Below are positions 38,099-56,509 of a stretch of 64,000 nucleotides of DNA, piece after piece. The stretch is from positions 8,904 through 72,903 of the forward strand of contig JBEKTW010000012.1 in the NCBI GenBank assembly GCA_049515655.1, in the 5' to 3' direction. How positions within the stretch are numbered: position 1 is the stretch's first letter; each line of letters begins with the position of its first letter. Made by a program: the position numbers and the translations under genes. The notes below the pieces were generated by a model. That model had not been told where the DNA came from. It worked only from the letters and a program-made list of their open reading frames with translations, and made no database searches. This DNA comes from Bacteroidota bacterium. Lineage in GTDB: Bacteria; Bacteroidota; Ignavibacteria; UBA10030; SZUA-254.

Positions 38099-38106
38099 CG
38101 CACTAT

Positions 38107-39087
38107 TTAACCCATCGTCAATGCCATCGCCGCTTTCTGGGCGTGCATCCGATTTTCAGCTTCATCGTACACAACCGAGTTGGGTCCATCCATTACGCCG
38201 TCGGTCACTTCGATGTTGCGGTCGGCGGGAAGCGGATGCATGTAAATTGCATCGGGTTTTGCCAGCTTTAGCCGTCGCTCGTCCATAATCCACGACGAGT
38301 ATTTGCCGATGATTTTTGCGCCTTCTTTTTCGTCCGCCGTGTGGACCATCGCGCCCCACGACTTAGCGTAGACGACGTCGGCGCCCTTCATCGCGGCATC
38401 CATATCGTTAACCACCTCGAAGCCTGCGCCAAATTTCTTCGCTTGCTCACGCGCTTGATCCATGATCTCCGGCATCAGTTTAAATTCCGGAGGATGCGCA
38501 AGGACGACATCCATTCCAAAGCGCGGCATTTGCAGGATGAGTGATTGCGGTACCGACATCGGTTTCTGGTACGAGGAGGCGTATGCCCATGACACGACGA
38601 TCTTCTTGCGGCGCAGATCGCGTCCCTTCTTTTCGACAATCGTCATCAGGTCGGCGAGTATCTGGTACGGGTGATAGACGTCGCACTGCATATTCAGGAC
38701 CGGCACCCGCGAGTGTTTTGCAACTTCATTGATGTATTTGTTGCCGACGCCCCAGTCCACATGGCGGATGGCGATGCCGTCGAAATACCGGCCAAAAATT
38801 TCTCCGATTTCCTTCGGCGTGTCGCCGTGCGCAATCTGCGTCGACCGCGACTCGATGAATGCCGCGTGCCCGCCGAGTTGTGCCATCCCTGCTTCAAAGG
38901 AACCGCGCGTACGCGTGCTGGAGAAAAAGAATAGCATGGCGAGGACTTTATCGCGCAGCACTGCCTGCGATTCATTCAACGCGCGTTTGCGTTTTAAATC
39001 AAAAGCAACGTCGAGGACAGTTTCAACTTCTTCTTTGCTGAAATCGAGATCGCCGATTAAATCACGGCCATGTAGGTATGTTTGCAT
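38107..39087 (-). CDS. transcarbamylase (ATCase/OTCase superfamily), substrate unknown (YgeW-context paralog 1)
   Basis: STRTR carbamoyl-phosphate motif (FFFSSTRTRGSFEAG), HPYQ and HPLP motifs. 326 aa. Adjacent to carbamate kinase. Confidence 0.8.
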   Translation of the reverse strand: MQTYLHGRDLIGDLDFSKEEVETVLDVAFDLKRKRALNESQAVLRDKVLAMLFFFSSTRTRGSFEAGMAQLGGHAAFIESRSTQIAHGDTPKEIGEIFGRYFDGIAIRHVDWGVGNKYINEVAKHSRVPVLNMQCDVYHPYQILADLMTIVEKKGRDLRRKKIVVSWAYASSYQKPMSVPQSLILQMPRFGMDVVLAHPPEFKLMPEIMDQAREQAKKFGAGFEVVNDMDAAMKGADVVYAKSWGAMVHTADEKEGAKIIGKYSSWIMDERRLKLAKPDAIYMHPLPADRNIEVTDGVMDGPNSVVYDEAENRMHAQKAAMALTMG

Positions 39088-39102
39088 GGGTTCTTCTTTC
39101 GT

Positions 39103-39174
39103 TTGATAGTTCGATAGTTAAATAGTTCAATAGTTAGATAGTTGGATAGTTCAATAGTTCGATAGTTGGATCGT
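39103..39174. repeat. 8-bp-period tandem array (NNATAGTT) of about 9-11 units
   Basis: tgatagtt cgatagtt aaatagtt caatagtt agatagtt ggatagtt caatagtt cgatagtt ... It continues degenerately into the 3' end of the adjacent four-helix-bundle gene. Confidence 0.7.
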
Positions 39175-39597
39175 TCAGTCGTTTGGTGGTTTCTTCGTTG
39201 GATCGTCGGAGCGTTGTTTGTTCGATGCTGAGCCGTGTTCGCGAAGATACGCGATGAATGCATTCATGAGTTGTTTCGCTTCAGTTGCCAAATTGTAAAC
39301 GGCATCCATTTGTTCTTGCGTGACGTACTTGCGATCAAGCGCGAGGTTCAATTCAGACTGTACTTCGCTGGCTGAGCGGCGCGCAATCTTTAGAAACCGG
39401 ATGAATTCCGGATTATAGCCAGAATCGAAGCCCTCTGCTATATTGTGCATCACTGATCCTGCCGCCGCCTGAATCTGATCCCGTAGCCTAAAGTCTTTCG
39501 CAAATCGTGTTCCTTCAGTGAGATCATAGATCGCGTTTGCCAATTTCCGCGCCTTATGCCAACACTCTAGATCTTCAAAGTGTCTGATTGTCCCCAT
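39175..39597 (-). CDS. four-helix-bundle protein (23S rRNA intervening-sequence protein family, TIGR02436/PF05635-like), copy 1
   Basis: MGTIRHFEDLECWHKARKLANAIYDL...RDQIQAAAGSVMHNIAEG...FLKIARRSASEVQSELNLA matches the family consensus. The gene is AT-richer than its flanks. The track start at 39612 is a TTG. Confidence 0.8.
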   Translation of the reverse strand: MGTIRHFEDLECWHKARKLANAIYDLTEGTRFAKDFRLRDQIQAAAGSVMHNIAEGFDSGYNPEFIRFLKIARRSASEVQSELNLALDRKYVTQEQMDAVYNLATEAKQLMNAFIAYLREHGSASNKQRSDDPTKKPPND

Positions 39598-39770
39598 AAA
39601 AATCCTCCCCAACTGTCGAACAATTGAACGACCAAACGATCCAACGATTCAACAACCGAACAATCCAACTACCCAACTACTTAACTACGCAACCACACAA
39701 CTGTACGTTATTCAACGCCCGAACGATCTAACGACCCAACTATTTAACTACTCAACTACGTAACTGTAAG
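39598..39770. repeat. 8-bp-period array (NAACNANN / CAACTAYN), about 20 units, inverted relative to the 39103-39174 array
   Basis: gaacgacc aaacgatc caacgatt caacaacc ... caactacc caactact taactacg. The reverse complement of 39103-39174 aligns with it (shared ccaaacga, gaacgatccaac, caactat). Confidence 0.65.
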
Positions 39771-40751
39771 TTATTCAACAGCACCCAAAACGAGCGAGAT
39801 CAACCCCATTTTCAGGACGACGCCGTAGAATGCTTCCTGCCAGTAGCGCGCCCAGCGGGTAATGTCGACGTCCGGAGGAATCTCATCCATGCGTGGAAGC
39901 GAGTGGAGTAATATCATATCACTCTTTGCCTTGCTCATCAATAGCTCGCGCGTGATCTTGAAATTCGCCGGCGTGAGCGGTCGATCCTTCGTGGCTTCCT
40001 GTCGCGACTGCGAATAATCGGCCTGGATCACCGGCTCGACCAGAATCACATCGGCGTTCGCGATCGCCTGCTCGACGTGCTCCGCTTCGCTAAAGTTAAG
40101 TCCGTACTTCTTGAAATCCGCCTTGTATTCTTCCGGCATTCGCATGTCGGGCGAGTTTGGGAAAAGCGCATTCGGGGCCGGGCCGACGAAAGTGATGGGA
40201 CAATCGAATTGTGTAAGCGCATATCCGAGCGAGTGCATCGTGCGCATTCGCATGTCCCCAACGGCAAGCCAGCGCAGACCGTCAATGCGTCCGCGTTCGC
40301 GGAGGACCGTATAGAGGTCGGTGAGAATCTGGGTCGGGTGTTCGCCCCAGCCGTCACCGCCGTTGATGATCGGTACAGACGACCATTTCGCGGCCTCGTG
40401 CGGCGCCCCTTTCTGAAAATGGCGCATTGCAATCACGTCACCGTAGAACTCGAGCATCTTCACGGTGTCTTTGATGCTCTCCTGATAGTAATCGCCGGCG
40501 CGCGTCATTTTGGCGTCGGCAAAACCAGTAACGTGTCCGCCGAGGCGGTGCATGGCGGCTTCGTGGGAAAGACGCGTGCGCGTGCTGGGCTGATAGAACG
40601 CAGTCACGAGCGTCTTACCCTTGAGCATATCACTGTTCTGGCGATTGCGGGCGATCGGCTCCAGACGTTCCGCAATTTCAAACACGCGGAGGAACTCGCT
40701 TCGTTCAAATTCTTTAAGCGACAGAATGTCGCGACCGATGAAACTACGCAT
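39771..40751 (-). CDS. transcarbamylase (ATCase/OTCase superfamily), paralog 2
   Basis: STRTR motif (FYQPSTRTRLSHEAA), HPTQ, and an HSLP variant of the HPLP/HCLP motif. 326 aa. Confidence 0.8.
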   Translation of the reverse strand: MRSFIGRDILSLKEFERSEFLRVFEIAERLEPIARNRQNSDMLKGKTLVTAFYQPSTRTRLSHEAAMHRLGGHVTGFADAKMTRAGDYYQESIKDTVKMLEFYGDVIAMRHFQKGAPHEAAKWSSVPIINGGDGWGEHPTQILTDLYTVLRERGRIDGLRWLAVGDMRMRTMHSLGYALTQFDCPITFVGPAPNALFPNSPDMRMPEEYKADFKKYGLNFSEAEHVEQAIANADVILVEPVIQADYSQSRQEATKDRPLTPANFKITRELLMSKAKSDMILLHSLPRMDEIPPDVDITRWARYWQEAFYGVVLKMGLISLVLGAVE

Positions 40752-41383: not shown

Positions 41384-41453
41384 AAAAACGTTCCATGATT
41401 GACGATGGATGATTGATGTCGGCCTTTAGCCCTTGGCTTCTGGCCTTTGGCAT
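41384..41453. repeat. low-complexity repeat (gatgattga units plus ggcctttagcccttggcttctggcctttggc)
   Basis: The reverse complement of 41811-41847 is about 85% identical to 41421-41451. The two flank four-helix-bundle gene copy 2 as inverted repeats. Confidence 0.6.
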
Positions 41454-41810
41454 TTAACTCTTAGAGATTTTCGATATCAGGGCGTTCGTCATCTTTTGCT
41501 CTGACGTCAGTAATCCTGCAACTTTTTCCACTTTCTCGGCTGGGACAAGACAGAGCTCTTGAAGAATCTGTATTTGAGTCTCAAGTTCAAACGCAGAGCC
41601 CATTGATAGCTCCAAGAATCTTTTGAATTCAATCTCACTATTTCTGCTACAGCCTTCTGCGATATTGGACGGAATTGAAACTGCGGCCCTGCACATTTGA
41701 GCCTTCAATCCGTACTGTTCTTCTTTCGGAAGTAATTTCGCAAGATCATACACTTGCTTCACAATCTCAATTCCATCCCTCCAAATAGTCAATTTTCTGA
41801 AGTCTCTCAT
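41454..41810 (-). CDS. four-helix-bundle protein (23S rRNA IVS protein family), copy 2
   Basis: MRDFRKLTIWRDGIEIVKQVYDLAKLLPKEEQYGLKAQMCRAAVSIPSNIAEGCSRNS..FKRFLELSMGSAFELETQIQIL is a textbook family match. About 43% GC. Confidence 0.85.
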   Translation of the reverse strand: MRDFRKLTIWRDGIEIVKQVYDLAKLLPKEEQYGLKAQMCRAAVSIPSNIAEGCSRNSEIEFKRFLELSMGSAFELETQIQILQELCLVPAEKVEKVAGLLTSEQKMTNALISKISKS

Positions 41811-41847
41811 CTTGCCTCCCAAAAGCCAAGAGCCAATGGCTAATAGC
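41811..41847. repeat. inverted partner of repeat 41421-41451 (ccaaaagccaagagccaatggctaatagc)
   Basis: Contains the 15-mer ccaatggctaatagc, whose exact reverse complement gctattagccattgg occurs in the 45438-45543 repeat. Confidence 0.55.
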
Positions 41848-43192
41848 TTTCTATTGTCACACTCTTCCCCACACTCTTCACCACTCCGTCAATACTCGCA
41901 TGCACTCTCGCCCCGAGTTTTCCTTCGGGAATTTCTCCGATGCACTGGCCTTTCACGACCATGTCGCCGGGGCGGACGATCGCGAGCGCCGGAAATCCCA
42001 TGTGCTGGGAGAGCGGAATCTCGACCTTCGACACCGTGATGTGCTTTTTGATGAACTCCGAGGGATGGTCGTAGTCGGTCACACCGAGACGTTTCACGAG
42101 TTGCCTCAGCGGCGTTCGCCTCCCCTCATACATGGGATGAGGTTGAACGTCCATATTCCCCGACCATTTGATTCCCTGTTCCTTCAAATCGTGTTTTGCC
42201 TTGTCGCAAGCTTCTTTGGGAAACAGGCTTTCAGGACACGCGTACAACGTGCAGAGCCCGCACGAGCAGCAGAGCTCTGCGTACTGATTCCAGATATTCT
42301 CTCCGGTCGTTGTAAACGAGAGACTCCGCATCACTTTGTGCGGCTGGATGTCGTAGCCGAGGAGGTAGCGCGGACACAATTCCGTGCAGTACGTGCACTG
42401 GTCACATGCTGATTTCCCTATCCGGTGCATCGATTTTTCCGGTTGACGCTTCCGCTGCACAAGAGTATGCTCAATCGGAAGAACCACCAAACCCGCCACC
42501 GTCTTTGTGATGGGAAGGTCAAGATTAAACTCCAATCTCCCCATCATGACACCGCCGACGAAGACCGCGAATCCCTTCGAGCCGTCGTAGGAGAACCCGC
42601 CCGCCGCTTCAATCGCTTTCGCGAAACTCATACCGATCGGTGCGAGAAAGGAACCCGGGTTCCTGACGGCGCCTGCGACGGTGAGGAATTTTTCCGTGAC
42701 CGGGTGACCTTCCGCCGCACGGACGATATTGTAGAGAGTCTCGACATTGTTGACCACGACGCCGACGTCGAGCGGAATTCCTTTCGGAGGGATCAGGCGC
42801 TTCGTCGCCTCATACACGAGGATGTATTCATCGCCGGATGGATAGAAATCTCCCAACAGATGGAACTTGGGATTATGCTTGGGATTATTGGCATGATTGG
42901 GATTATTGGAACTTAAGGCCGTGGAGAGTGCGTCGATAGCGAGCTTGTTCTTCTGCTTGATTCCAATGATCCCGGAACCCGCTCCCGTCGATTCCATGAG
43001 GAGTTGCAATCCCCGGACGACTTCCCCCGGATAATGGAGCATCAGTTCATAGTCCTTATGAATCAACGGCTCGCATTCGGCTCCGTTGGCGATGACGCAC
43101 CCGACCTTCGCGGAGGCCTTGACGTGTGCCGGGAATCCGGCTCCGCCCGCGCCGACAACCCCGGCGTTGCGTATTTTCTCTGAAATGCTCAC
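41840..43192 (-). CDS. RnfC/NuoF-like Fe-S flavoprotein, PduS-like
   Basis: GAGGAGFP NADH/FMN-site motif near the N-terminus. Two 4Fe-4S ferredoxin motifs (CDQCTYCTELCP; CCSCGLCTLYACP). 450 aa, GTG start. Lies immediately upstream of the PduT-like gene, as pduS-pduT do in pdu operons. Confidence 0.75.
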   Translation of the reverse strand: MSISEKIRNAGVVGAGGAGFPAHVKASAKVGCVIANGAECEPLIHKDYELMLHYPGEVVRGLQLLMESTGAGSGIIGIKQKNKLAIDALSTALSSNNPNHANNPKHNPKFHLLGDFYPSGDEYILVYEATKRLIPPKGIPLDVGVVVNNVETLYNIVRAAEGHPVTEKFLTVAGAVRNPGSFLAPIGMSFAKAIEAAGGFSYDGSKGFAVFVGGVMMGRLEFNLDLPITKTVAGLVVLPIEHTLVQRKRQPEKSMHRIGKSACDQCTYCTELCPRYLLGYDIQPHKVMRSLSFTTTGENIWNQYAELCCSCGLCTLYACPESLFPKEACDKAKHDLKEQGIKWSGNMDVQPHPMYEGRRTPLRQLVKRLGVTDYDHPSEFIKKHITVSKVEIPLSQHMGFPALAIVRPGDMVVKGQCIGEIPEGKLGARVHASIDGVVKSVGKSVTIESY

Positions 43193-43248
43193 AGATGAAG
43201 ATTCAATTCAGAGGTTAAAATAAGAAACAATGCCGGAAGTTCCAAGAA

Positions 43249-44969: not shown

Positions 44970-45437
44970 TCAAATTCTCCCAAACATCCTCATAAGGAAT
45001 CGATGGAAACCGTGCGCTCCTTTCGGATCGACGAACATAAATAGACATCTGCCGGTTATTACCTCTGCGCCGGTGTCCTTTGCAATTTGAATGGATTTCT
45101 GGGTTTCCGACATCTGTTGAAACCAGATAATCTCGAAACGCCTGTTTGCCACTTGTTCCATCAAAGCGTCGGTGGCACGACGGGGAGTCGCCACAAAGAG
45201 ATTCCTTACAGTTTGTGGAATACCTGCAATACTGGGATTGCATGCCACGCCGTCGATTTGAGTCGCTTCGGGGTGAACCGGATGCACCGAATAGCCATGA
45301 GTTCGAAGATGTTCGAAAAGCTTGTATCCAAATTTCTTCTTATCTCTTGATACTCCTGCAATGGCAATGTCTCTGGCCGAGAGGAATTTTTGAATCAGCT
45401 CCGAAGAGGTCATCCGGTCAATCATGTTCTTTGTCAT
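44970..45437 (-). CDS. CoA-binding domain protein (YccU/YneT-like)
   Basis: IAIAGVSRDKKKFGYKLFEHLRTHGYSVHPVHP matches the CoA_binding-domain consensus (IAVVGAS..P.R.G..V...L...GY.V.PVNP). About 48% GC, lower than its flanks. Confidence 0.7.
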   Translation of the reverse strand: MTKNMIDRMTSSELIQKFLSARDIAIAGVSRDKKKFGYKLFEHLRTHGYSVHPVHPEATQIDGVACNPSIAGIPQTVRNLFVATPRRATDALMEQVANRRFEIIWFQQMSETQKSIQIAKDTGAEVITGRCLFMFVDPKGAHGFHRFLMRMFGRI

Positions 45438-45543
45438 TGGTCATTGGTTCTTGCTTTTGGCTTTTGGCTTTTGGCTATTAGCCATTGGCCTTGGGCTGCC
45501 GGCTTCTGAATTCTGTATTCTGACTACTGGGCTTCTAATTGAC
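45438..45543. repeat. modular low-complexity repeat, direct partner of 44716-44969
   Basis: catgttctttgtcattggtcattggttcttgcttttggcttttggcttttggctattagccattggcc...ccggcttctgaattctgtattctg. Confidence 0.6.
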
Positions 45544-46869
45544 TTACAGTCTCTTCCATAACTCCGCCGCACACTCGCGCGCCCGAGCGTTGATACGTTC
45601 TTCGTCGATATTGAGCATCAACCGGCGGCCTTCCATCAATACATTTCCGCTCACAATCGTCGTGTCTACGGCAAACTGCGACGCTCCGAACAACAGATGA
45701 CCGAAGACGTTTGTGCCGTCGATCGGCGTCGTGGCATCATAATCGATGATGGCAATATCGGCAGCACACCCTTCACGCAGCTCTCCCAGCGGGACACCGA
45801 AGATTTGCCCGCCAATCGCCGGATTGTTCACGAAGAGCGCGTTCGTCACCTCGGACCATCCAATCGACGGGTTGCTTCCGCGGAGGTGCTGCATCCAGAG
45901 CGCAACGCGCAATTCTTCAAGCATGTTCGTCGTCATCGCATCCGTTCCGAGCCCGACGCGTATGCCGCGTTTCTGCATGGCAATAATGTCGGCGATTCCC
46001 ACGGCATTGTTCCCGTTCGATTGCGGGTTGTGAACGACCGTTGTACCCGTGCTTGAAAGAATATCCATCTCTTTCTCATCACAGTGCACACAGTGCGCAG
46101 CGATCGTCTGCTGCCCCAGTACATCAAATTTCTTCAACCTTTCAACGACCCGCATGCCGAAATGCTGCTCGGCGTACTCTTCGTCGCTCGCCGCTTCGGC
46201 GACGTGGACGTGAAAACCGGTCTTGAGGTCGCGTCCCAGCCTCGAAGCCGCCTCCAGGGTGTTGTCCGACAAGGTAAACGACGCGTGAAGTCCGAACAGA
46301 GCAGACACCGTGTGATCATTTCGACCCGTGCACTCGCGAATAAACTCTGCATTTTCATCCAATCCCTCTCTCGCAATTCGATCACCATCTCTGTCCGAAA
46401 GTTCATAGCAGAGACAGGCTCGGAGCCCGGTTTCGCGGACCGCCCCCTCGATCGCCTTCAACGAACCGCGGACTGCCCCGGGGCTCGCATGATGGTCGAT
46501 AAGCGTCGTGGTGCCGTGCCGGATAGACTCAATCAGGGCGACGAGCGCGCTGTAGTAGCAGTCTTCGGTTGTGAGCGCGGAATCCAGGCGCCACCAGAGA
46601 TTTTTCAGAACACCGACAAAATCGCCGGCAGGTTTTGCCTTCGTCAGACCTCGTGCAAACGAGCTGTACAAATGCGTATGGGCATTGATGAAACCCGGCA
46701 CAACGAGCTTCCGGCGTGCATCGATTCGCTCGGCCCCCTTTCCAATCTTGTCACCTTCCGGGACAATCCTGCTGATCCGTCCATCCTCGACGAGAACGGA
46801 ATGACCGTGAAGAACCTCGGGCGACTTCCCGAGCGTAACCAACGTTCCATTTTCAATGATAAGTGACAT
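45544..46869 (-). CDS. ssnA: SsnA-family amidohydrolase (chlorohydrolase/aminohydrolase), paralog 1
   Basis: HxH metal motif (PGFINAHTHLY). SsnA-specific block LKNLWWRLDSALTTEDCYYSAL...TTLIDHHASPGAVRGSL. Start set at internal ATG 46869 (MSLIIENG), 5 nt after the upstream gene's stop. Confidence 0.8.
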   Translation of the reverse strand: MSLIIENGTLVTLGKSPEVLHGHSVLVEDGRISRIVPEGDKIGKGAERIDARRKLVVPGFINAHTHLYSSFARGLTKAKPAGDFVGVLKNLWWRLDSALTTEDCYYSALVALIESIRHGTTTLIDHHASPGAVRGSLKAIEGAVRETGLRACLCYELSDRDGDRIAREGLDENAEFIRECTGRNDHTVSALFGLHASFTLSDNTLEAASRLGRDLKTGFHVHVAEAASDEEYAEQHFGMRVVERLKKFDVLGQQTIAAHCVHCDEKEMDILSSTGTTVVHNPQSNGNNAVGIADIIAMQKRGIRVGLGTDAMTTNMLEELRVALWMQHLRGSNPSIGWSEVTNALFVNNPAIGGQIFGVPLGELREGCAADIAIIDYDATTPIDGTNVFGHLLFGASQFAVDTTIVSGNVLMEGRRLMLNIDEERINARARECAAELWKRL

Positions 46870-46873
46870 CGAT

Positions 46874-49372
46874 TCATCCTTCTTGTAAAAGTGAGAGTTC
46901 ACGCCTGGACCTGTCCCGCATGGAGATTGCACCGGAGAAGCATTTCTGGGCACATAATGAGCAGCCGACGCATCGGGCAGGATCGAACTGCGGAATCCTA
47001 TTCTTATCCAGTTCGATGGCCTCGTATGCGCACCGCGTGCAATTGCCGCAGTGCTGACACAATTCGTGCACAACCGTCGGGATCTTCTTTGTCGCAGTAA
47101 GCTCACCGAATCCTGTGATGGGATCGGGCAGCGCAGAACCGATCAGCGCTTCCACGGACCGGATTCCGCGTTCTTCCATCAGATAGCTCAGTCCGGAGTG
47201 CAGTTCGTCGACGATGCCGTAGCCGTACTTCATGGCGATCGTGCAGAACTGAACTGTCCGAACGCCGAGCGCGAGAAAATTAGCTGCCGACTTGTAGTCC
47301 ATTGGCCCACCGTTGCCGGAGACCGTGATCCCCATGCCCGAGACCTTGGCCAGCGTCAGATTGCTGATCGGCAGAACACCTTCACCCGACATACCAACGA
47401 CAACTCCTTCGTCCCACGTTCGCTTCTTCCCACGGCGGAATGCAAGCGATGGAAAACTGTTCGCCAGCGTGACACCCGCCTTCTTGCGTGGATACCGGGA
47501 AAAAACCTCCTTGATAGCGCTCACAATCGGATAAATGGCGGTGACGGCCGCCGTCAGTTTGAAGAGCTTCGGGACATCGGCGCTTCCGGCCTGCATCACC
47601 CAGTCGACGATCTTGGCAGTCAGTTCTGCGTCCTGGGAGACGATGTCGCCCTTGGTGCCGTCTCCGCCCTGCGGGCATGAAAGACTGTATTCGATCCCCA
47701 TGACACCGGCGGATTCAAGTTTCCGGGTGTTCGACTGCCATGCTGCGCTATCCTTCTCGTCATCACCTGTTACCGGCCCGCCGGTCGAGGCGGCAGTCAA
47801 CCGGTCGGGGAACTCACGTCGCAGACGTTCGACTTCACGCCGAACGCGGTCGAGCGCATGGCCCGATACATTGTCGCAATTCGCATATGTCGACCTTGAG
47901 AATGCAAACATATACTCGGACGGAATGTGAATCGGAACATTATCGAAAGCGGTCTTCATGATACCACCAGCCCAGCCCGACTCGTACGCTCTTTTCATTT
48001 GATTGTACCCGTCAGTGGGCGGGCCCGCAGAAAGCAGAAAAGGAGAAAGAATTTTACGACCGAAGAAATCAGCTGTCAGCGGAACCGGAATCATCAACCG
48101 ACCCGGCATGACGGTGCGGTTCTTGGTTGCCTTTTCAATCCGTTTGGCGGAGTGGCCGGACACGAAAGCGTCGAGTTCCAGAGCGGCGTTCTTGCCGGCA
48201 GCTACTGCTTCGACGACCGTCGTCGGACCGTTGACCATGTCGCCCGCATAAAAAACGCCTTTCGTATGCGACATCTGAAGGGAAGACCGTGCACCGGCGG
48301 CAATAATCACGAAGTCGACATCCGGGCGCGTTTGCTCGGTTCCTTTGAGATCGACGACGTTGCTCGGATGGAATTTCTTTCCCTTCGGCAGGGTAACCTT
48401 CTGCGTCCGCAAACCGGTGATGCGCCTTCCGCTCCTCAGGATTTCCAGCACCCTCACTCGTCCGCTGACCGCAATACCCGTTTCTGCAATTGCATGACGC
48501 TCCTTGGCCGTGAGGGGCATCTCAGACCATGTCTCGAGCGCAAACATCTCCACGAATGTTGCACCTCGTGCAAGCGCCTCCTCAGCGCAGTCGAGCGCCA
48601 CTGCTCCGCCTCCGATGACTGCCACGCGCTTTCCCTTCACCGTGAATCGGGACGGGTCGCGGAGATAGTCCATCCATTCGACGGCCACGCTGCTGTTCTC
48701 CATCTTCGGAGTAAAGGACTCATCGAGGCCCGTCGCTACCAGAATGGCATCGTATCCGTTTCTTGATGCAGGAGACCATTTGCCCTTCTTGAACGTAATA
48801 TCACCAAGCAACTTCAGGAAATCGATATCGGTTTTGAGAACTTCCGGCGACAATCTAGATTCCGGGATGAGACGACACATGCCGCCGGGCTGCTTTGTCG
48901 TGTCCATAACGTCGACAGCGTACCCCTTCTGTGCGAGCAATGACGCAGCGCCGAGACCCGCCGGACCGGCGCCGTAGACTCCGACCTTGTTTCCATTTGA
49001 ATCCGCCTTTTCAAACTCAGGCATGACGCCAAGCTGTTTTGCTTTTTCAATGATTGTTGCCTGGACGGCCGGAATATTCACCGCGGAGTCGAACGTCCGG
49101 TGAACGCAGGCCTTCATGCAATGCCGGTCGGGACAAACTGCGCCGCAAACACCGCCGAGAGGATTACTTCCCATGATGAGCGCGGCGGAGCGTTTGAAAT
49201 CGGAATGACTGCCTGCCTTCACGGCCATAATAAAGTCCGCGGGCGAACAATCGACAGGGCATGCCTCCTTGCACGGCTTCTCTTCGCAATACTCGCATTT
49301 CTCGACCTCGGCGCGGAGTTGAGCGTCAGTGAGAAATCCTGTAACGCAATTCGTTTTTTTTACCTTGGTCAT
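46874..49372 (-). CDS. YgfK-like Fe-S flavoprotein (dihydropyrimidine-dehydrogenase-like fusion: GltD-like FAD/NAD domain, DHOD-like TIM barrel, 2x[4Fe-4S])
   Basis: N-terminal Cys clusters. Dinucleotide fold VGVYGAGPAGLGAASLLAQKGYAVDVMD. C-terminal ferredoxin pair CQHCGNCTRCAYEAI...CVGCSLCAQKC. ATG at 49372; the track's 49411 is a TTG. Confidence 0.8.
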   Translation of the reverse strand: MTKVKKTNCVTGFLTDAQLRAEVEKCEYCEEKPCKEACPVDCSPADFIMAVKAGSHSDFKRSAALIMGSNPLGGVCGAVCPDRHCMKACVHRTFDSAVNIPAVQATIIEKAKQLGVMPEFEKADSNGNKVGVYGAGPAGLGAASLLAQKGYAVDVMDTTKQPGGMCRLIPESRLSPEVLKTDIDFLKLLGDITFKKGKWSPASRNGYDAILVATGLDESFTPKMENSSVAVEWMDYLRDPSRFTVKGKRVAVIGGGAVALDCAEEALARGATFVEMFALETWSEMPLTAKERHAIAETGIAVSGRVRVLEILRSGRRITGLRTQKVTLPKGKKFHPSNVVDLKGTEQTRPDVDFVIIAAGARSSLQMSHTKGVFYAGDMVNGPTTVVEAVAAGKNAALELDAFVSGHSAKRIEKATKNRTVMPGRLMIPVPLTADFFGRKILSPFLLSAGPPTDGYNQMKRAYESGWAGGIMKTAFDNVPIHIPSEYMFAFSRSTYANCDNVSGHALDRVRREVERLRREFPDRLTAASTGGPVTGDDEKDSAAWQSNTRKLESAGVMGIEYSLSCPQGGDGTKGDIVSQDAELTAKIVDWVMQAGSADVPKLFKLTAAVTAIYPIVSAIKEVFSRYPRKKAGVTLANSFPSLAFRRGKKRTWDEGVVVGMSGEGVLPISNLTLAKVSGMGITVSGNGGPMDYKSAANFLALGVRTVQFCTIAMKYGYGIVDELHSGLSYLMEERGIRSVEALIGSALPDPITGFGELTATKKIPTVVHELCQHCGNCTRCAYEAIELDKNRIPQFDPARCVGCSLCAQKCFSGAISMRDRSRRELSLLQEG

Positions 49373-49608
49373 CTGATCACCCTCTTTCTTTTGATCACGT
49401 GGAGTCTTCAATTACTCGACCTGAATTTCGATCTGCCGCTGGGAGTCATCGAGAGTTTGAATGGCTCTTGCGATCTGATCGTGTCCTGTCCAACGGCACA
49501 GATTACTGCTAATTGCGGTGTGCATATCGTTTCCCGTGTTTGTGAAGTGCGAGCGTAAGCGAACATTTGGGCGAGGGGATCAAACCACAAACACCGTGTT
49601 AGGCGAGG

Positions 49609-50010
49609 TCATTTGCTCTGCTCAATGTCATCTAAAAAATCCAAAAGATGATCCCGCACAACAACAAATGAAGGACCCCCTCCAAATTCAACCCCTATCG
49701 CCGCTGCCTCCAACACCTCATCCCTTGTAGCCCCAGCCAAAATCGCATTGTTTGCATGGTTGGCAAGGCAAGGGATACATCTTGTAGCTACCGCAGCCGT
49801 GACGGCCATTAGCTCTTTTTGTTTTCTATCTAAAGCACCATGCTTGTAGTAGTGTTTTACCAATTCATTGAAACCATTGTAAAGGTTGGGTGCCTCCTTT
49901 TCCAAACGCTCTCTGTTGGCTTTTCTCTTTTTCAAAATATCTTTCACATTATGCATGGATTTACCTTCTATTTTATCATTCTGGGCCATTACTGCCTTAC
50001 ACTTTACCAT
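49609..50010 (-). CDS. carboxymuconolactone-decarboxylase/AhpD-like family protein (AT-rich insertion)
   Basis: AhpD-like core with CxxC-type motif (AAVATRCIPCLANHAN). About 43% GC versus about 58% for neighbours. Confidence 0.7.
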   Translation of the reverse strand: MVKCKAVMAQNDKIEGKSMHNVKDILKKRKANRERLEKEAPNLYNGFNELVKHYYKHGALDRKQKELMAVTAAVATRCIPCLANHANNAILAGATRDEVLEAAAIGVEFGGGPSFVVVRDHLLDFLDDIEQSK

Positions 50011-51202
50011 TCAATGTCGCGACGAACGCTGCGTAAAACGCGGCTGCTCGGCTGAGCTGCTCGATTTGACACGCTTCGTTCGGGGCGTGCGCATACAGTT
50101 CATTCCCCGGACCGAGCAGGAAACACGGGATACCGTGCATTCCGGCAATCGCAGTTGCGTTGCTGCTAAACGTCCACATGTCGACGTGAGGATCTTTACC
50201 GAACACTCCAGCGTACACTTCGACGGCGCTCTTGAGAAACGGAGAGTTTGCGTCCAGCGACCACGTCGGATAGTATTTTTCGGTTGGATACACCTTCCCG
50301 GTATATGCAGCGTCCTCGAAAATGAGCACGCTAACCTTCGCATCCTCGTAACCTGCGCGTCTGGCTGCTTCGTACACTTCAGCCACGGTGGTTTCTTTCG
50401 ATTCGTCCTGGGTCAACCGCCGGTCGAGACGGATGCTCGCGCCGTCCGGCACGGCGCAGATTGATGGAGACATGGAGCCGGCTTCAGTGACTGTGATCGA
50501 CCCCTTTCCCAAGAACGGATCGCTCCGCAGCCGCTCATTAAGCCTTTCGATTTCCAGCGCAATGCGCGCGATTTTATAGATGGCATTATCGCCGCGCTCG
50601 GGCGCGGAGCTGTGGCAGCTTCGTCCTTTCACTTCAACGCGCATCTCCATCCGGCCGCGATGACCGCGGTAGATGTTCATGTTCGTCGGCTCCGTAATCA
50701 CCACGAGCTCGGGCCGAAGGTGATCTTCCCTGATGAGGTGCTGCCAGCAGAGTCCATCGCAATCTTCTTCCATCACCGTGCCGGTGAAGTAAAGAGTGAA
50801 CGCGTCATTCAGATTCAGTTCTTTGATGAGCCTGGCCGCGGACAGCATCGCCGCCAGCCCGCCTTTCTGGTCGACAGTTCCGCGTCCCCACACCTTGCCG
50901 TCTGCCACCTTCGGGTCGAATGGGTCGAAGCTCCACTGCCCCCGGTCGCCTGCCTTCACGGTATCAACGTGTCCATCGAAGGCAATAGTTCTTGTTCCAC
51001 TGCCGATGCGTCCGATGATGCTCCCGAGTCCGTCAATCCTGATTTCGTCAAAGCCCACCTTTTCCATCTCTCGTCGGACAACCTGGACCGCCTCTTTCTC
51101 TTTCGACGAGAAGGATGGTGTACGAACGAGATCCATCAGAATCCGGACGGTGTCGTTTTCGATTTCCTTCGCTCGATCGTAAATGGCCTGGTATAAATTC
51201 AT
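49997..51202 (-). CDS. M20-family metallopeptidase/amidohydrolase (YgeY-like)
   Basis: M20 motifs (AFDGHVDTV; GRGTVDQKGG; TGTVMEEDC). Start at ATG 51202 (MNLYQAIYDRAKE); the track extension was rejected. Confidence 0.85.
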   Translation of the reverse strand: MNLYQAIYDRAKEIENDTVRILMDLVRTPSFSSKEKEAVQVVRREMEKVGFDEIRIDGLGSIIGRIGSGTRTIAFDGHVDTVKAGDRGQWSFDPFDPKVADGKVWGRGTVDQKGGLAAMLSAARLIKELNLNDAFTLYFTGTVMEEDCDGLCWQHLIREDHLRPELVVITEPTNMNIYRGHRGRMEMRVEVKGRSCHSSAPERGDNAIYKIARIALEIERLNERLRSDPFLGKGSITVTEAGSMSPSICAVPDGASIRLDRRLTQDESKETTVAEVYEAARRAGYEDAKVSVLIFEDAAYTGKVYPTEKYYPTWSLDANSPFLKSAVEVYAGVFGKDPHVDMWTFSSNATAIAGMHGIPCFLLGPGNELYAHAPNEACQIEQLSRAAAFYAAFVATLNGKV

Positions 51203-51225
51203 TCTTCCCGGGTTACTCTTCCCTC

Positions 51226-51687
51226 TCACTTTGCCGCATCCTTGATCGCTTCGACAATCTGAACGTAACCGGTGCACCGGCAGAGATTGCCCGAGATAGC
51301 GATTCGAATGTCCTCTTCGGAAGGATGGCCGTTCTTATCCAGCAATGCTTTCGCACTCATTAACATTCCCGGTGTACAGAAGCCGCAATGTGCTGCATCG
51401 TGGTCCATGAAAGATTCTTGAAGCGGGTCGAGTCTACCGTCCGAGATCAAACCCTCCACCGTCAGGATTTTTTTGCCGTCAATCTGAGGCGCGAGCACAA
51501 GACACGAATTCACGGCTGCTCCGTCGAGCAGAACCGTGCAGGCGCCGCATTCCCCCACTTCGCAACCGCATTTCGTTCCGGTAAATCCGAGTTCATCCCG
51601 CAGAATCTCAAGCAGCGTTCTGTCGGGGAAAATCGAGAGCACATATTCCCGACCGTTGATGGTTGTATGGATTGGGACTTGGGGCAT
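51226..51687 (-). CDS. molybdenum hydroxylase [2Fe-2S] small subunit (XdhC/CoxS-like)
   Basis: Plant-type ferredoxin motif CGCEVGECGACTV. Second cluster motif CGFCTPGMLMS...NLCRCTGY. Confidence 0.9.
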   Translation of the reverse strand: MPQVPIHTTINGREYVLSIFPDRTLLEILRDELGFTGTKCGCEVGECGACTVLLDGAAVNSCLVLAPQIDGKKILTVEGLISDGRLDPLQESFMDHDAAHCGFCTPGMLMSAKALLDKNGHPSEEDIRIAISGNLCRCTGYVQIVEAIKDAAK

Positions 51688-51887
51688 CAACTTGAAGAAT
51701 TGGAATGATTGGAATGATTCCAGAGATTATTCCTTCCCTTTTCAAATTTGCGAAGGTATTTCATATTGTACTCAAATCCTTCGGCGATATTGCTGGAAAT
51801 CGACATCGCCGTGTATATGTCGACCGCAACCTGCATCGCTTTCCGCCAAACTTCTAAGTCTTCAATCTTTCCAATCTTCCTAATCAC
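51687..51887 (-). pseudogene. decayed four-helix-bundle (IVS-protein family) gene remnant, copy 3, exactly filling the FAD-subunit / 2Fe-2S gap
   Basis: 66 aa: KIEDLEVWRKAMQVAVDIYT...SISSNIAEGFEY retains the family N-terminus and the SNIAEG motif but has lost the middle and the C-terminal helices. Flanked by inverted repeats gaagaattggaatgattggaatga (51693-51716) and tcaatctttccaatcttcc (51856-51880). Confidence 0.45.
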
Positions 51888-52741
51888 AATCTACACCCCT
51901 CCAGCGCCCGCCTGACCAAAACACCAATGACCGGTTCTTTGTATTCGGTTGACCAGCGTCTGCCGGTTTCCGAAATCATCAACTCCGAGACCTTCTGCCC
52001 CGCGGCTGCGAACAGTTTTTCCGAAGGTTTTTCCCCTATCAGCATTTTTTCCGCCTCATCGGCTCTTCTCCACTTCGAAAATGCAGCTCCGGGAGCAATA
52101 CGGGCGTCGACGATTTTCCCCTGTTCATTCTGTTCAATCACGGCGGCCACGCTCAATCGCGCGATGGAGAGCGCGTTCCGACGACCGAGCTTAATGAAGG
52201 CACTCCGGGCTTTTTCAGAAAGTTTCTGGAATCGGATTTCCGTCAGGAGTTCGTCTGGCCGGGCGTTTGTTACATACGGCCTCACAATCAATTCATCAAT
52301 TCCCATTTGCCGGCTCCCGCGCTTCGATTTCAGCGTGACACGGGCGCCAAGGGCAATAAGCGGGGGTACGGTATCGGCACAGACGGCGGCGTTCATGATG
52401 TTGCCGCCGATCGTGCCGCGATTTCTGATCTGCGGGGAACCGATGAGGGAAGCGGCAGCTGCAAGTAATGGCGCGTACTGATGGAGGATGGAGGATTGGA
52501 GCAACAGCGTGTGTGTCGCGAGGGGTTTGATGCGGACAGACCCGTTCTCCAGATTGATCGTGCCAAACTCATCAAGGAATGAGATATCAATGACCGCTTT
52601 CGGCGGCTTGCCATCGGGCCGACGGAGCTCCAGGAGCACGTCCGTGCCGCCGGCAAGGATACGCGCATCAGGACCATATTCAGCGAGCACTGAACACGTT
52701 TCGTCGATTGAACCGGTCCGTATGTAATCGAATGCCCTCAT
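51884..52741 (-). CDS. molybdenum hydroxylase FAD-binding subunit (XdhB/CoxM/YgfM-like)
   Basis: ILAGGTDVLLELR FAD-binding signature and a CO-dehydrogenase-flavoprotein-like fold. ATGA overlap with the Mo subunit. Confidence 0.85.
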   Translation of the reverse strand: MRAFDYIRTGSIDETCSVLAEYGPDARILAGGTDVLLELRRPDGKPPKAVIDISFLDEFGTINLENGSVRIKPLATHTLLLQSSILHQYAPLLAAAASLIGSPQIRNRGTIGGNIMNAAVCADTVPPLIALGARVTLKSKRGSRQMGIDELIVRPYVTNARPDELLTEIRFQKLSEKARSAFIKLGRRNALSIARLSVAAVIEQNEQGKIVDARIAPGAAFSKWRRADEAEKMLIGEKPSEKLFAAAGQKVSELMISETGRRWSTEYKEPVIGVLVRRALEGCRL

Positions 52742-55143
52742 CTTTTCTTTGAGCTTCGTTTCCTACCCGGTGGCTTCTTTCTTGGCCGCAACGGACGCTG
52801 AGGTTTCTGTCTTGTTTTACTGCTGTCAAGATTGAACTCGTCCTTCTTCACCGACCCGCGTTCACCCTTCCTCGTGAGCTTATGACCGAGGAGGACTCTC
52901 TCAAGGTTCGCGGGTAACTCGTCTATCCGTTTGCCCGTTGCGTTGTAGATTGCATTGACGATCGCCGGCGCGGCAAGTTCGTTCGCCGGTTCACCGATCG
53001 ATTTCGCGCCAAACGGTCCCGCCGCATCCTCATTCTCTATGACGATCGGCGTTATCTTTGGAACGTCCATCGACGTAGGAATCAGGTACTCATCGAAGTT
53101 CAGTTGCTTGGGAATTCCACCTTCAATCTCGAATTCTTCCAGCAGTCCGTAACCGAGTCCCATGGCAACCCCGCCGTAGAACTGGCCGAGCACTGTCGAC
53201 CGATTGATCGCTTTGCCGACGTCATGAGCGGAAACAACATTGAGAACATCCACTTTACCAGTCTCCGTATCGACCTCGACTTCCGCAACGTTTGTCCCGT
53301 AGACGAAGGTGAAGTACGCTTCCCCGTGTCCGTCTTCTTCATGCCAGGTTGTTCGCGGCGACTTGTACCATCCGAAGCCGTACATCGGCTTGCCCTGGTT
53401 GAAACATGCAGCGGCAAGCTCGGAAAATGATGCGAGTCTCTGCGAGCTCTTTTTGTCGATGAGATAATTCCCGGCGAGGTCCAGATCCTGCGCATTGCGG
53501 CCGGTCATTTCCGCCCCGGCGCTTAGAAGAGTCGCGCGGACTATCTCCGCCGCATGCTTTGCTGCCGAACCGCCCATGATGGTTCCGCGGGATGCCACTG
53601 TCGGACCGGAATCCGGAACCCTGCTTGTGTTCGTGTTGAGGAACAGAATACGCTCCATCGAAATGCCGAGAACCTCAGCCGCGATCTGCGACATTTGCGT
53701 TTGCGCGCCCTGTCCCATGTCCGTTATGCCGGAAGAAACAATGACACTGCCGTCGGTCTGCACGGATACGATTGTCCCGGCGGCATCCGCTCCTTCCGCT
53801 CCGAGTGAAACACCGCGGTAGCTGCAGGCAAGACCGATTCCCCTGCGTTTCGGGGCTCTTGGAGCAGTCCGGTACTCCTTCCACTTCTTCAGGAAATCCG
53901 ACGCCTCCGCCGCTTTGGTCAGAGCTTCCTTAAGACTCACAATATGGTCCAGCTTTTGACCCGTGGCCGTCACGGCCCCGCGCTCAAATCCATTCTGAAG
54001 ACGGATCTCGAGCGGATTCTTGCCGACCCGCTCCCCGAGTTCATCCATCATCGATTCAATCGCGAAGTTCACCTGCGGTGAGCCGAAGCCGCGCATGGCG
54101 CCGGTGTAATTGTTGTTCGTGTAGACCGCGTACACATCGGTCTTGACATTCTCGCAGTAGTACGGCCCGGTTGCCTGAACAACGGACCGCCACGTCACGA
54201 ACGGACTCATGGAGGCGTACGCACCGCCGTCAGCGATGACGCGGGCTTCCATCGCCGTGATCGAGCCGCCGTTCTTCGCTCCCCACTTGTAGTACATCGT
54301 GTAGGGGTGGCGTTTATAACTTTCAAGCATCGACTCTTCACGGGAATTTACCATTTTCACCGGCTTCCCGGTCTTCAGGCACAGCAACGCCGCCCGGCAG
54401 CACATCGACGTCATCACCTCATCCTTGCCGCCGAAGGAGCCGCCGAGAGTCGCCTGGATGATCTGAACTCTATTCAGGTCGAGATTCAACGCGGCGGCGA
54501 CCGACCTCCGGCTCGAGAAGAGATTCTGCACCGAGCCGACAATTCTCACGCCGCCATGCTCGGCGGGTTCGGCCAGAACCGCCTCCGGCTCGATGTAGGA
54601 ATGTTCGACGAATTGTGTCTTGAATTTCTTCTCGATAACGAAATCCGCTTCGGCGAATCCCTTTCCGGTGTCGCCCTTGCGAACCTTGTGATGAACAAAA
54701 GTATTATCTTCCCCGTGGATCCTGGGAGCATCCGCGGTCATCGCAAGCTCCGGGTCGGAAACGACGGGCAGTTCTTCGTATTTCACTTCAATGAGAGTCA
54801 GCGCGCGGGCCGCGATCTTTTCACTTTTCGCCGCAACCAACGCAATGCCGTCGCCTAAATAACGAACTTTCTCCCGGGCGAGTATCGCCTGGTTCTTCAC
54901 GACGATTCCAAACGCTCTTTCGCCCGGAATGTCCTTTGCGGTGAGAATGGCCTCCACGCCCTCGAGCTTCTCGGCCTTCGAAACATCGACAGACAGGATC
55001 TTCGCGTGCGGATGCTTTGCACGAAGGACTTTCCCATACAGTTGGTGCCCGGCATTATAGTCAGCGGCAAATTTTGCTTTGCCGGTGACCTTTCCGAGAG
55101 CGTCCACTCTGCGTTCAGGTTTTCCGATGATCCTGTTTGCCAT
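52738..55143 (-). CDS. molybdopterin-binding large subunit of a xanthine-dehydrogenase-family hydroxylase (XdhA/XdhD-like) with a Lys/Arg-rich C-terminal tail
   Basis: 801 aa. Ald_Xan_dh_C N-terminal region (GKPERRVDALGKVTGKAKFAAD...) and Mo-cofactor domains. The last about 45 aa are ...RKGERGSVKKDEFNLDSSKTRQKPQRPLRPRKKPPGRKRSSKKR. Confidence 0.9.
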   Translation of the reverse strand: MANRIIGKPERRVDALGKVTGKAKFAADYNAGHQLYGKVLRAKHPHAKILSVDVSKAEKLEGVEAILTAKDIPGERAFGIVVKNQAILAREKVRYLGDGIALVAAKSEKIAARALTLIEVKYEELPVVSDPELAMTADAPRIHGEDNTFVHHKVRKGDTGKGFAEADFVIEKKFKTQFVEHSYIEPEAVLAEPAEHGGVRIVGSVQNLFSSRRSVAAALNLDLNRVQIIQATLGGSFGGKDEVMTSMCCRAALLCLKTGKPVKMVNSREESMLESYKRHPYTMYYKWGAKNGGSITAMEARVIADGGAYASMSPFVTWRSVVQATGPYYCENVKTDVYAVYTNNNYTGAMRGFGSPQVNFAIESMMDELGERVGKNPLEIRLQNGFERGAVTATGQKLDHIVSLKEALTKAAEASDFLKKWKEYRTAPRAPKRRGIGLACSYRGVSLGAEGADAAGTIVSVQTDGSVIVSSGITDMGQGAQTQMSQIAAEVLGISMERILFLNTNTSRVPDSGPTVASRGTIMGGSAAKHAAEIVRATLLSAGAEMTGRNAQDLDLAGNYLIDKKSSQRLASFSELAAACFNQGKPMYGFGWYKSPRTTWHEEDGHGEAYFTFVYGTNVAEVEVDTETGKVDVLNVVSAHDVGKAINRSTVLGQFYGGVAMGLGYGLLEEFEIEGGIPKQLNFDEYLIPTSMDVPKITPIVIENEDAAGPFGAKSIGEPANELAAPAIVNAIYNATGKRIDELPANLERVLLGHKLTRKGERGSVKKDEFNLDSSKTRQKPQRPLRPRKKPPGRKRSSKKR

Positions 55144-55177
55144 ACTTGTTATTCATTGATTTGCCGGGCGTCATGAA

Positions 55178-56509
55178 TCAGATTCTTGCCCACAGTTTCT
55201 TGGCAGCATTCCGGGCCTTTTCATAGATAGACGGCACATCCTGCCCGACGATCTCGCGACCCTGTACAACCCACTTCCCGCCTACCATCACCGATTCAAC
55301 CATCGACGACTGCATGCCGAAGAGGAAATGACCCGGAAGATTCGCCCCGTTCAGAGGACTAGGGGATTCATACTCCATCACAACCAGGTCTGCGACCGAA
55401 CCCTTTTCCAGCGTTCCGAACTTCTGTGAAAAAATCTCCGACACCATTTCCTGATTGCTTTGAAGAAAAGAAGTGATTGGCTTAGCGGATTGAGAAATCC
55501 CGGATATTCTCCCGCCTCGTGCTTCTTTCTTCTTGTCTCTTTCTTCTTGATTCCAGAAAAAACCAACCCTGGCCTCTTCCAGCATGTCGGCCGGAAAACC
55601 GTCGGTACCCAGGCAGGCGCGATCACCGAAAAGACGCAGCGGGGCATGTCCGACACGGTTGTTCATGTTCGACCTCGGGTTGTGCACCAACCAGCATCGC
55701 GATTCCCGGAGTTTCAAGAAATCCCGTACTCCCACGTGAATGCAATGCGCAAGAATCGATTTGTCTCTCAAGATCCCGCACTCCGAGAGACGGCCGACGA
55801 CACTGCACTCGTAGTTTTCCTCCGCGTCGACACTATCGCACGTGTCTTCAGCGACATGGATATGAACACCCATTTTATTTTCAGACGCCATATCGCCGCA
55901 CAGGCGGAGAGAATCATTGCTCAAGGTGAACGAGGCATGAGCTCCGACCATGCCGCGGAACCGGGGATGTTTCCTGTTCGCCCGAATAAAGCGTTCGTTT
56001 TCTTTCAGTCCCTGGTCGCGCTCTTTCTTGCCGCCCCTGTCCGTCACTTCATAACAAAGAACGCCGCGAAGCCCGGCTTCTTCCACGGCCTGTTTAATAA
56101 TGTCGAGTGAACCACCGATGGCACTGGGTGATGCATGGTGGTCCACGAGCGTCGTCGTGCCGCAGCGCGCAGCTTCAACGGCACCGACGAGCGCACTGTA
56201 ATATATCGACTCGTCGTCGAGAGCCCGGTCGAGTTTCCACCATACCTTTTGGAGAATTTCGAGAAAGTTCGCTGGCTGAACCTTCGGCCCCGGCATGCCG
56301 CGGGAGAGTGCGGAGTAAAGATGCGTGTGCGCGTTCACCAAACCGGGGAGAACGATCCTGCCTCTGAGGTCAAGTCTCTCCTCATCATGGACCTGGGGCA
56401 GGTGCTTCCCCCGTTCCGTGATGATTCCATTCCGAATGCGAAGGTCGGTCGCTTCGATTGAGGGAGGATTCAGGACAGCGCTTCTGGCGTTCTTTATGAG
56501 AAGGTTCAA
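55178..56509 (-). CDS. ssnA: SsnA-family amidohydrolase, paralog 2 (closest to E. coli SsnA)
   Basis: LPGLVNAHTHLYS, LQKVWWKLDRALDDESIYYSALVGAVEAARCGTTTLVDHHASPSAIGGSL and HNPRSNMNN line up block by block with SsnA. TTG start. Confidence 0.85.
   Translation of the reverse strand: MNLLIKNARSAVLNPPSIEATDLRIRNGIITERGKHLPQVHDEERLDLRGRIVLPGLVNAHTHLYSALSRGMPGPKVQPANFLEILQKVWWKLDRALDDESIYYSALVGAVEAARCGTTTLVDHHASPSAIGGSLDIIKQAVEEAGLRGVLCYEVTDRGGKKERDQGLKENERFIRANRKHPRFRGMVGAHASFTLSNDSLRLCGDMASENKMGVHIHVAEDTCDSVDAEENYECSVVGRLSECGILRDKSILAHCIHVGVRDFLKLRESRCWLVHNPRSNMNNRVGHAPLRLFGDRACLGTDGFPADMLEEARVGFFWNQEERDKKKEARGGRISGISQSAKPITSFLQSNQEMVSEIFSQKFGTLEKGSVADLVVMEYESPSPLNGANLPGHFLFGMQSSMVESVMVGGKWVVQGREIVGQDVPSIYEKARNAAKKLWARI

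Follow-up and report, generated by a model that had tools for sequence, protein, structure and literature searches.

The closest described relatives of the element reported here lie within ribosomal RNA genes. [quoted passage not shown] Further points of comparison are the four-helix-bundle proteins of PF05635/TIGR02436 (XCC0516, PDB 2GSC; 2RLD), the distant fold homologue Avd of diversity-generating retroelements (PF22296, NF033474), and two kinds of short tandem repeat, the cyanobacterial STRR heptamers and the TAACTGA repeats found in intergenic spacers of Beggiatoaceae (PMC4679880). Both kinds have been reported as direct repeats that mostly precede start codons, and not as inverted pairs around a gene; PMC4679880 does not connect them with the four-helix-bundle family. 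That family was met between cmr3 and cmr2 in a survey of cas loci, which interpreted its presence as an association (PMC3936711); an insertion may be the simpler reading.

In a window of 64,000 nucleotides (the whole stretch of DNA analysed here), the remnant of a four-helix-bundle (H4) gene, hereafter the relic, fills the junction between the FAD and 2Fe-2S subunit genes of a molybdenum hydroxylase. With a probability that we put at roughly 85%, the relic is a recently eroded IVS-type S23p/PF05635 cassette lying in a former ATGA overlap and now probably serving as a translated bridge.

The likeness to the S23p rRNA intervening sequences of Coxiella burnetii and Leptospira (PMC4990558) extends to the protein family, the stem-forming borders, the short tandem repeats, the lack of a transposase, the erosion of the ORF in place and the sense orientation on the host transcript. 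Complementary borders are found in the relic, in two intact window copies (A and B) and in 40 of 60 other loci. Whereas rRNA intervening sequences occupy rRNA helices and are demonstrably excised by RNase III, the relic lies outside any 16S or 23S rRNA gene, between two protein-coding genes of an operon, and RNA processing would apply to it by analogy. It is also unlike rRNA intervening sequences in its insertion point, a stop/start overlap, and in its arms, which are long arrays.

Copy B matches the structure 2GSC at 1e-23. The relic differs from the PF05635/TIGR02436 proteins in having half their length, no helices 3-4 and scores under the cut-offs, and as a pseudogene fragment it cannot form the pentameric bundle. 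Homology to Avd is distant: copy B gives E values of 0.007 and 0.02, the window copies score far under the cut-offs of the Avd models, and neither a reverse transcriptase nor a template/variable repeat lies next to the three window copies, whose neighbours are the FAD/2Fe-2S subunits, carbamoyltransferase-like genes, an RnfC-like gene and a BMC shell protein. Like the STRR and TAACTGA repeats, the window arrays are tandem 7-9-mers in operon intergenic spacers, and H4 genes on Nostoc plasmids are flanked by such short tandem arrays. Lastly, the junction recalls ATGA/TGATG translational coupling, with ATGA at the empty junction and, in the relic, GTGA where it meets the FAD gene and TGATG where it meets the 2Fe-2S gene; unlike plain stop/start coupling, that of the relic would pass through a relay ORF of 66 codons with its origin in a selfish element.

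The relic ORF and its repeat arms

The operon and the parts of the relic, in the order of the transcript, are as follows.

52738..55143, minus strand: molybdopterin-binding (large) subunit gene, with a 4-nt overlap with the FAD gene
51884..52741, minus strand: FAD-binding (medium) subunit gene of the molybdenum hydroxylase (PF00941, PF03450)
51687..51887, minus strand: relic ORF, 201 bp, 66 codons from GTG to TGA, a four-helix-bundle (PF05635/TIGR02436, S23p-type) pseudogene fragment
51859..51884, minus strand: mRNA-5' arm, a 9-nt tandem array with GGAAGATTG units in the sense strand
51813..51863, minus strand: helix-1 segment kept (EDLEVWRKAMQVAVDIY), 51/53 aligned nt identical to the intact gene of locus L168; HMM positions 3-26
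51810-51812: scar of a 60-nt deletion, just upstream of the kept half of helix 2
51765..51809, minus strand: second half of helix 2 kept (AMSISSNIAEGFEYN), 45/47 aligned nt identical to L168
51764/51765: scar of a 162-nt deletion that is common to loci L165-167
51744..51764, minus strand: C-terminal tail kept (MKYLRKF), from the comparison with L168
51699..51724, minus strand: mRNA-3' arm, also a 9-nt tandem array, whose sense-strand units (AATCATTCC) complement the 5' arm
51226..51687, minus strand: 2Fe-2S (small) subunit gene (PF01799, PF00111)

Large subunit, FAD subunit, relic and 2Fe-2S subunit thus form a chain of overlapping ORFs. The FAD subunit is XdhB-like but scores under the equivalog cut-off. 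An earlier sequence-only reading had proposed the 66-aa ORF, which is confirmed on the minus strand, and had given it 4-bp overlaps with both neighbours. At the FAD end this is correct, the FAD-subunit TGA and the relic GTG (51887-51885) sharing 4 nt as GTGA. At the other end the relic TGA overlaps the 2Fe-2S ATG at 51687 by 1 nt only (TGATG); this ATG aligns with the starts of homologues and is used by the JGI and Logan gene callers, and a 4-nt overlap arises only if the mechanical TTG at 51690 is taken as the start. The same reading had the family N-terminus and the SNIAEG motif retained and the central and C-terminal helices lost. The N-terminal helix and the S-x-x-x-N-I-A-E-G motif are indeed kept and helices 3-4 are gone; the C-terminal tail (MKYLRKF...NHSNHSNSSS), native to the intact protein, is still there. 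As for the inverted repeats said to bracket the ORF, their symmetry survives re-alignment in the form of two 26-nt arms, at 51699-51724 and 51859-51884, 77% complementary, which are 9-nt tandem arrays and not simple repeats (ATTGGAATG x2.3 at 51699-51719; CAATCTTCC x2.6 at 51863-51885).

Against a profile built from the intact copies, the relic gives three collinear pieces, with profile positions 27-45 and 64-115 missing and 66 aa left of a family length of about 110-130 aa. The losses amount to 20 codons for the helix-1/2 loop plus the opening half of helix 2, and to 54 codons for helices 3-4. Scores lie below the curated cut-offs of both family models, at 26.7 bits for PF05635 (cut-off 33.8; aa 9-26 on profile positions 1-18) and 19.6 bits for TIGR02436 (cut-off 24; aa 27-49 on positions 35-59). 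The family motif GxxRxxxSxxxNxxE (PMC3936711) is split: the S-I-S-S-N-I-A-E half is in the relic, and the GxxR half, still present as GQIRGAAMSISSNIAE in the intact gene of L168, falls within the deleted 60 nt. An identical 66-aa product (P0121) is annotated at NCBI as 'four helix bundle protein'. By position and sequence, the relic is a descendant of a PF05635/TIGR02436 gene. One assignment was discarded: MAFFT and a local aligner both placed MKYLRKFEKG on helix 3 (KYAKGS), and P0124, the intact product of L168, shows it to be the C-terminal tail. Scans of 51200-52300 gave no Rfam family, promoter or terminator above chance, and comparing the intact-copy profile with the six-frame translation of the window revealed neither a fourth copy nor a further relic.

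The arms were assessed with one scoring scheme, by sliding the geometry of the relic along the whole window. The relic scores 11.5, compared with a mean of 5.6 (sd 1.0), and is matched nowhere else among 1723 positions. A longer homologous 5' array occupies the same place in the related loci L003, L004, L008, L014 and L030. The 3' arm is translated as ...WNHSNHSN..., as it is in the intact orthologue. In the predicted RNA fold of the relic, the arms pair as a closing stem around the ORF; this fold is not significantly more stable than those of shuffled sequences (z = -1.6, 14/200), and neither is that of the intact cassette in L008 (z = +1.5).

Intact cassettes and other arrays of the window

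The two intact copies lie 10-12 kb from the relic on the same strand.

39101..39780, minus strand: intact cassette A, with its H4 gene at 39175..39612 by the ORF list
41421..41840, minus strand: intact cassette B, with its H4 gene at 41454..41822

Both products match PF05635 at E ~1e-32 (111-113 bits). Cassette A, with a likely ATG at 39597 preceded by GGGGAGGA, is enclosed by inverted 8-nt arrays (39101-39176 and 39627-39780) whose arms reach up to 94 nt and form the closing stem of its predicted fold (z = -4.5). In cassette B, where the likely ATG at 41810 is preceded by GGGAGG, inverted arms of 22 nt (41422-41443 and 41819-41840) with a 7-nt array, GGCCTTT, likewise close the predicted fold (z = -3.8). 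A canonical Shine-Dalgarno sequence stands 5-8 nt before the H4 ATG in both cassettes (GGGGAGGA, 39597-39615; GGGAGG, 41810-41825) and in L168 (AAGGAGG, L168:180-201), and is seen at none of nine host genes of the xdh neighbourhood.

All three cassettes belong to a long same-strand cluster at 36000-56000. The Pfam-scanned genes of this cluster encode xdh-type subunits, a BMC shell protein and an RnfC-like flavoprotein; Pfam labels on the gene calls of the source contig add an M20 peptidase and amidohydrolases, and translations were read as a carbamate kinase and two carbamoyltransferase-like proteins. Going by these gene names, the cluster may be a purine-degradation or fermentation island.

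Several other arrays deserve mention. Three related 8-nt arrays (38021-38099, 39101-39176 and 39627-39780) alternate in orientation, and the middle one can pair across either H4 copy A or the carbamoyltransferase-like gene at 38107..39087. Inside the RnfC/Nuo51-like gene 41840..43192 (minus strand), a 9/18-nt tandem array at 42866-42909 (ATGATTGGG...) is translated in frame to NNPNHANNPKHNPKFH; the repeat unit is similar to that of the 3' arm of the junction cassette (AATCATTCC), and the array could be a solo arm absorbed into coding sequence. In an intergenic region at 23184-23293, short-repeat arrays in inverted orientation (AAATCCGAA... / TTCGGATTT...) are separated by 25-63 nt and enclose no ORF; they resemble the ORF-less inverted heptamer arrays in the FAD/2Fe-2S junction of L018, and may represent the end state of cassette decay. 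Heptamer arrays without an H4 gene also occur in the intergenic spacers 44762-44966, 45433-45523 and 8007-8036, two of these sets flanking the small gene 44970..45437. Their units include GTCATTG, which we take for the cyanobacterial STRR heptamer TTGGTCA in rotated form.

Relatives of the junction and the path of decay

The window is part of the JGI metagenome contig Ga0427939_0000371. The FAD/2Fe-2S junction was compared in 80 loci from species-representative genomes, the nearest of which are labelled as Ignavibacteriota, Bacteroidota or Chlorobi-type MAGs. In many of these loci the junction is tight, and the overlapping empty sites are a clean ATGA. Of most consequence is the metagenome scaffold L168, where an intact 137-aa H4 gene (P0124, PF05635) is bounded, as the relic is, by this FAD end (TGTAGATTGTGA) and this 2Fe-2S start, and agrees with the three segments kept in the relic at 51/53, 45/47 and 31/33 nt (94-96%). 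The contig of P0002, with an FAD subunit 87% identical, carries a 139-aa PF05635 gene that ends at the 2Fe-2S start. L165-167 (FAD 92.6% identical) have an 88-codon form at the junction, and L163/164 (FAD 99%) have the 66-codon form of the window with one substitution. The cassettes of L008 and L030 are intact, consisting of an array, an H4 gene of 129-131 aa and an inverted array; L004 has the same cassette but with a TAT to TAG nonsense change. In L014 only a helix-3 piece (KYAKGSAGEVRNQLH) is left between the arrays, and in L003, which has suffered a 303-nt deletion, 36 codons keep the leader, an ATG of their own and helix 1. The junction of L018 holds ORF-less inverted heptamer arrays.

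Other inserts are found at the same junction in L019:4849-5537, L025:4849-5786, L005, L013, L061, L081 and L169-L173. One type, read from translated ORFs alone, is a nucleotidyltransferase and HEPN/DUF86-like pair; further types are another two-gene insert and GC-rich palindromic elements. At four junctions retrieved with FAD homologues of 295-312 aa, no H4 remnants were found, three of them having GC-rich palindromic inserts and the fourth (L172) being extended by a short non-repetitive stretch. A single protein of 465-499 aa combines the FAD and 2Fe-2S subunits in MAGs labelled Verrucomicrobia.

Compared with L168, the window relic has lost the leader, including AAGGAGG and the ATG; because of this loss the 5' array is fused to the codons for KIEDLEVW and the 5' arm is now read as relic codons 2-9. 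It has also lost 60 nt, corresponding to the loop between helices 1 and 2 and the first half of the latter helix, between direct repeats (GGCGAYG) that are still visible in L165, as well as the 162 nt of helices 3-4, and it has one more 9-nt repeat unit. Over 117 codon-aligned nt there are 4 differences from L168, 3 of them synonymous, and the decay is therefore recent. L165-167 have the leader and 162-nt deletions in common with the window and lack the 60-nt deletion, which therefore came after the other two. These alignments show an order of erosion in which the leader with its Shine-Dalgarno sequence and ATG was lost, then the 162 nt, then the 60 nt. By the same comparison, decay is independent in L003, L014 and L004. 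The 20-codon gap had been considered as a deletion common to the window and L003, a reading dropped on account of an alignment that is ambiguous around the GGCGAYG direct repeat; the L003 deletion is independent. While whole, the H4 gene was functional, given a dN/dS of 0.13-0.15 for intact junction copies where dS is measurable, and in the L168 clade the frame of the intact protein continues across the 3' array to end on the 2Fe-2S ATG.

How the cassette came and went can be approached through the neighbour-joining tree of the FAD and 2Fe-2S proteins, in which filled junctions stand beside empty ones in at least four places. The empty L007 is closest to the filled L008 in the FAD subunit (90% aa identity). 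In disagreement with this, the closest 2Fe-2S subunit to that of L008 is that of L004 (98%), which suggests a recombination breakpoint at the junction among L004, L007 and L008. Between L008 and L030 the H4 proteins are 64% identical and the flanking genes 65-75%. Divergence of the H4 gene therefore tracks that of its flanks, and the pattern fits an old resident that would have been lost or replaced through recombination in the flanking genes; repeated insertion of a single cassette lineage may instead have occurred. Comparison of filled sites (L008, L168) with empty ones (L007 and others) places the insert between the last FAD codons and the 2Fe-2S ATG. No target-site duplication accompanies it, and the cassette encodes no transposase, two departures from a transposon or MITE; a trans-acting enzyme is possible.

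These comparisons bear on the remaining claims of the sequence-only reading. That copies degrade in place is borne out by the intact L168 gene of 137 aa, by the 88-codon form of L165-167 and by the differently eroded L003, L014 and L004, and the ORF is not conserved at 66 aa in relatives, as it might have been in a genuine small protein. Recurrent insertion into the operon stands for the three window cassettes, which lie within 13 kb, are built on repeat units without relation to each other (9-, 8- and 7-mers) and encode proteins that share only 30-45% identity; it does not extend to the junction copy, which is old and common to relatives. The idea that the remnant now serves as the intergenic spacer gains support from deletions that keep the frame and from the end of the ORF on the 2Fe-2S start.

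Present role of the relic and the wider cassette population

The ancestral cassette was an H4 gene with its own ribosome-binding site between two inverted short-tandem-repeat arrays, set exactly where the FAD and 2Fe-2S genes had once met in an ATGA stop/start overlap. Ribosomes ending the ORF of an intact cassette of this clade on the 2Fe-2S start would pass on to the 2Fe-2S gene. The cassette was then eroded by deletions between short direct repeats that spared both arms, and once decay had begun deletions out of frame would not have been tolerated. The proposed relay would now run from the FAD stop/GTG through 66 codons to the TGA/ATG, tying translation of the 2Fe-2S subunit to that of the FAD subunit. 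In the transcript the arms may pair into a stem comparable, by analogy only, to the RNase III-cut stem of rRNA intervening sequences; short and weak in the relic, this stem probably no longer matters.

The internal deletions of the relics (60, 162 and 303 nt, and 9 nt in L165) are all multiples of three, and the relic frames terminate on the 2Fe-2S start, with TGATG in the window and L003 and ATGA in L014. About four of these events are informative, for a chance of about 0.01; 9-nt changes inside the arrays, in frame by construction, were not counted. A shifted relic frame meets no stop before the 2Fe-2S start, and ribosomes would therefore run over it. From the in-frame deletions together with the stop on the start codon we infer selection against frameshifts, and in terms of sequence the relic probably passes ribosomes from the FAD to the 2Fe-2S gene as a translated bridge. 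Several facts run counter to this. The Shine-Dalgarno sequence and ATG of the relic are gone, its GTG start is hypothetical and JGI made no ORF call. Most host genes here are without a Shine-Dalgarno sequence, and the 2Fe-2S gene therefore need not depend on coupling; the missing Shine-Dalgarno sequence before this gene, once taken as evidence for coupling, was dropped as such, nine nearby host genes being without one as well. A gap of 20-62 nt separates the stop of the intact gene from the 2Fe-2S start in L008, L004 and L030, and coupling through the cassette is therefore not universal.

Other explanations have to be set against these observations. An unlikely one is that the relic is neutral junk, its open frame and its stop on the ATG being leftovers of the intact arrangement plus chance. 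Decay is recent and has left little time for selection, the informative deletions number only about four, and the junctions of other lineages tolerate toxin-antitoxin-like pairs, GC-rich palindromes and fused-protein linkers; the low chance that every informative deletion would be a multiple of three speaks against it, as does the preservation of termination on the start codon in three independent relics. Those same two patterns would be left unexplained by a role in RNA only, a reading we hold to be a little more doubtful still, in which the relic is an untranslated spacer and the arm hairpin a site for RNase III or other processing, or a stabiliser, that sets the subunit ratio. Here the arms are the main argument: every relic (window, L003, L014 and L165) keeps them though most of the ORF is lost, the inverted repeat of the window relic is significant, the predicted structure closes on it, ORF-less inverted arrays exist in the L018 junction and at 23184-23293, and rRNA intervening sequences are cut in such stems. 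The predicted fold of the relic is nevertheless not significantly stable, and arms may persist merely since deletions occur between internal direct repeats.

Very improbable, in our estimation, is that the relic encodes a real small protein under selection, a truncated four-helix bundle with a function of its own that might for instance bind intact paralogues through one helix. The frame has stayed open through several deletions, the NCBI name of the identical product is that of a four helix bundle protein, and the window and L003 share 91% identity in the helix-1 segment, compared with 52-74% at fourfold-degenerate sites of the flanking genes. This identity had led us to suspect constraint on the relic itself; L165 and L168 show it to reflect recent decay, independent in each case, from a gene under purifying selection. 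Moreover, lengths of 137, 88, 66 or 36 aa occur in a narrow clade with varying kept pieces, helices 3-4 and half of helix 2 are absent, and the scores fall under both family cut-offs. The translated bridge remains the preferred reading. Taken alone, the relic is a case of ordinary gene decay, a new instance of a known process; the class of operon cassettes, a variant of the rRNA intervening sequence, is more interesting than the relic.

To look at this class more widely, metagenome contigs were scanned with an alignment of the intact copies, yielding 80 H4 loci, 60 of them with enough flanking sequence. A flank inverted-repeat score of at least 13 was reached in 40 of the 60, compared with 3 of 133 offset controls, and tandem arrays of period 7-10 were present on at least one flank in 54 and on both flanks in 36, with repeat units that vary between loci. 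The H4 gene is sense-oriented in 39 of the 40 loci with co-directional neighbours. The RefSeq plasmid of Nostoc sp. ATCC 53789 carries an H4 gene between 31-nt arms, 94% complementary, and a RefSeq plasmid of Riemerella anatipestifer shows the same repeat-armed design. An incomplete literature search turned up no account of H4 cassettes with repeat arms in protein-coding operons.

Tentatively, and with rather less than even confidence, we propose that S23p cassettes with inverted arrays form one widespread, transcript-riding class across Ignavibacteriota, Bacteroidota and Cyanobacteriota. Such cassettes would lie in sense at operon junctions, be gained and lost precisely and probably be cut at the stem, their relics being kept as coupling spacers, and rRNA intervening sequences would be the first-noticed members. 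Many intergenic heptamer arrays that lack an explanation may likewise derive from them.

The one-site series of intact, 88-, 66- and 36-codon forms would illustrate how a selfish insert can be whittled down with the tight coupling of an operon unbroken. The relic also connects the long-puzzling S23p/four-helix-bundle family and the rRNA intervening sequences with a much larger set of cassettes that have repeat arms and lie in protein-coding operons, a class that merits a systematic census. From this link follow testable ideas on the function of the family, on the short tandem repeats of intergenic regions and on those cas-gene 'associations' that may be insertions.
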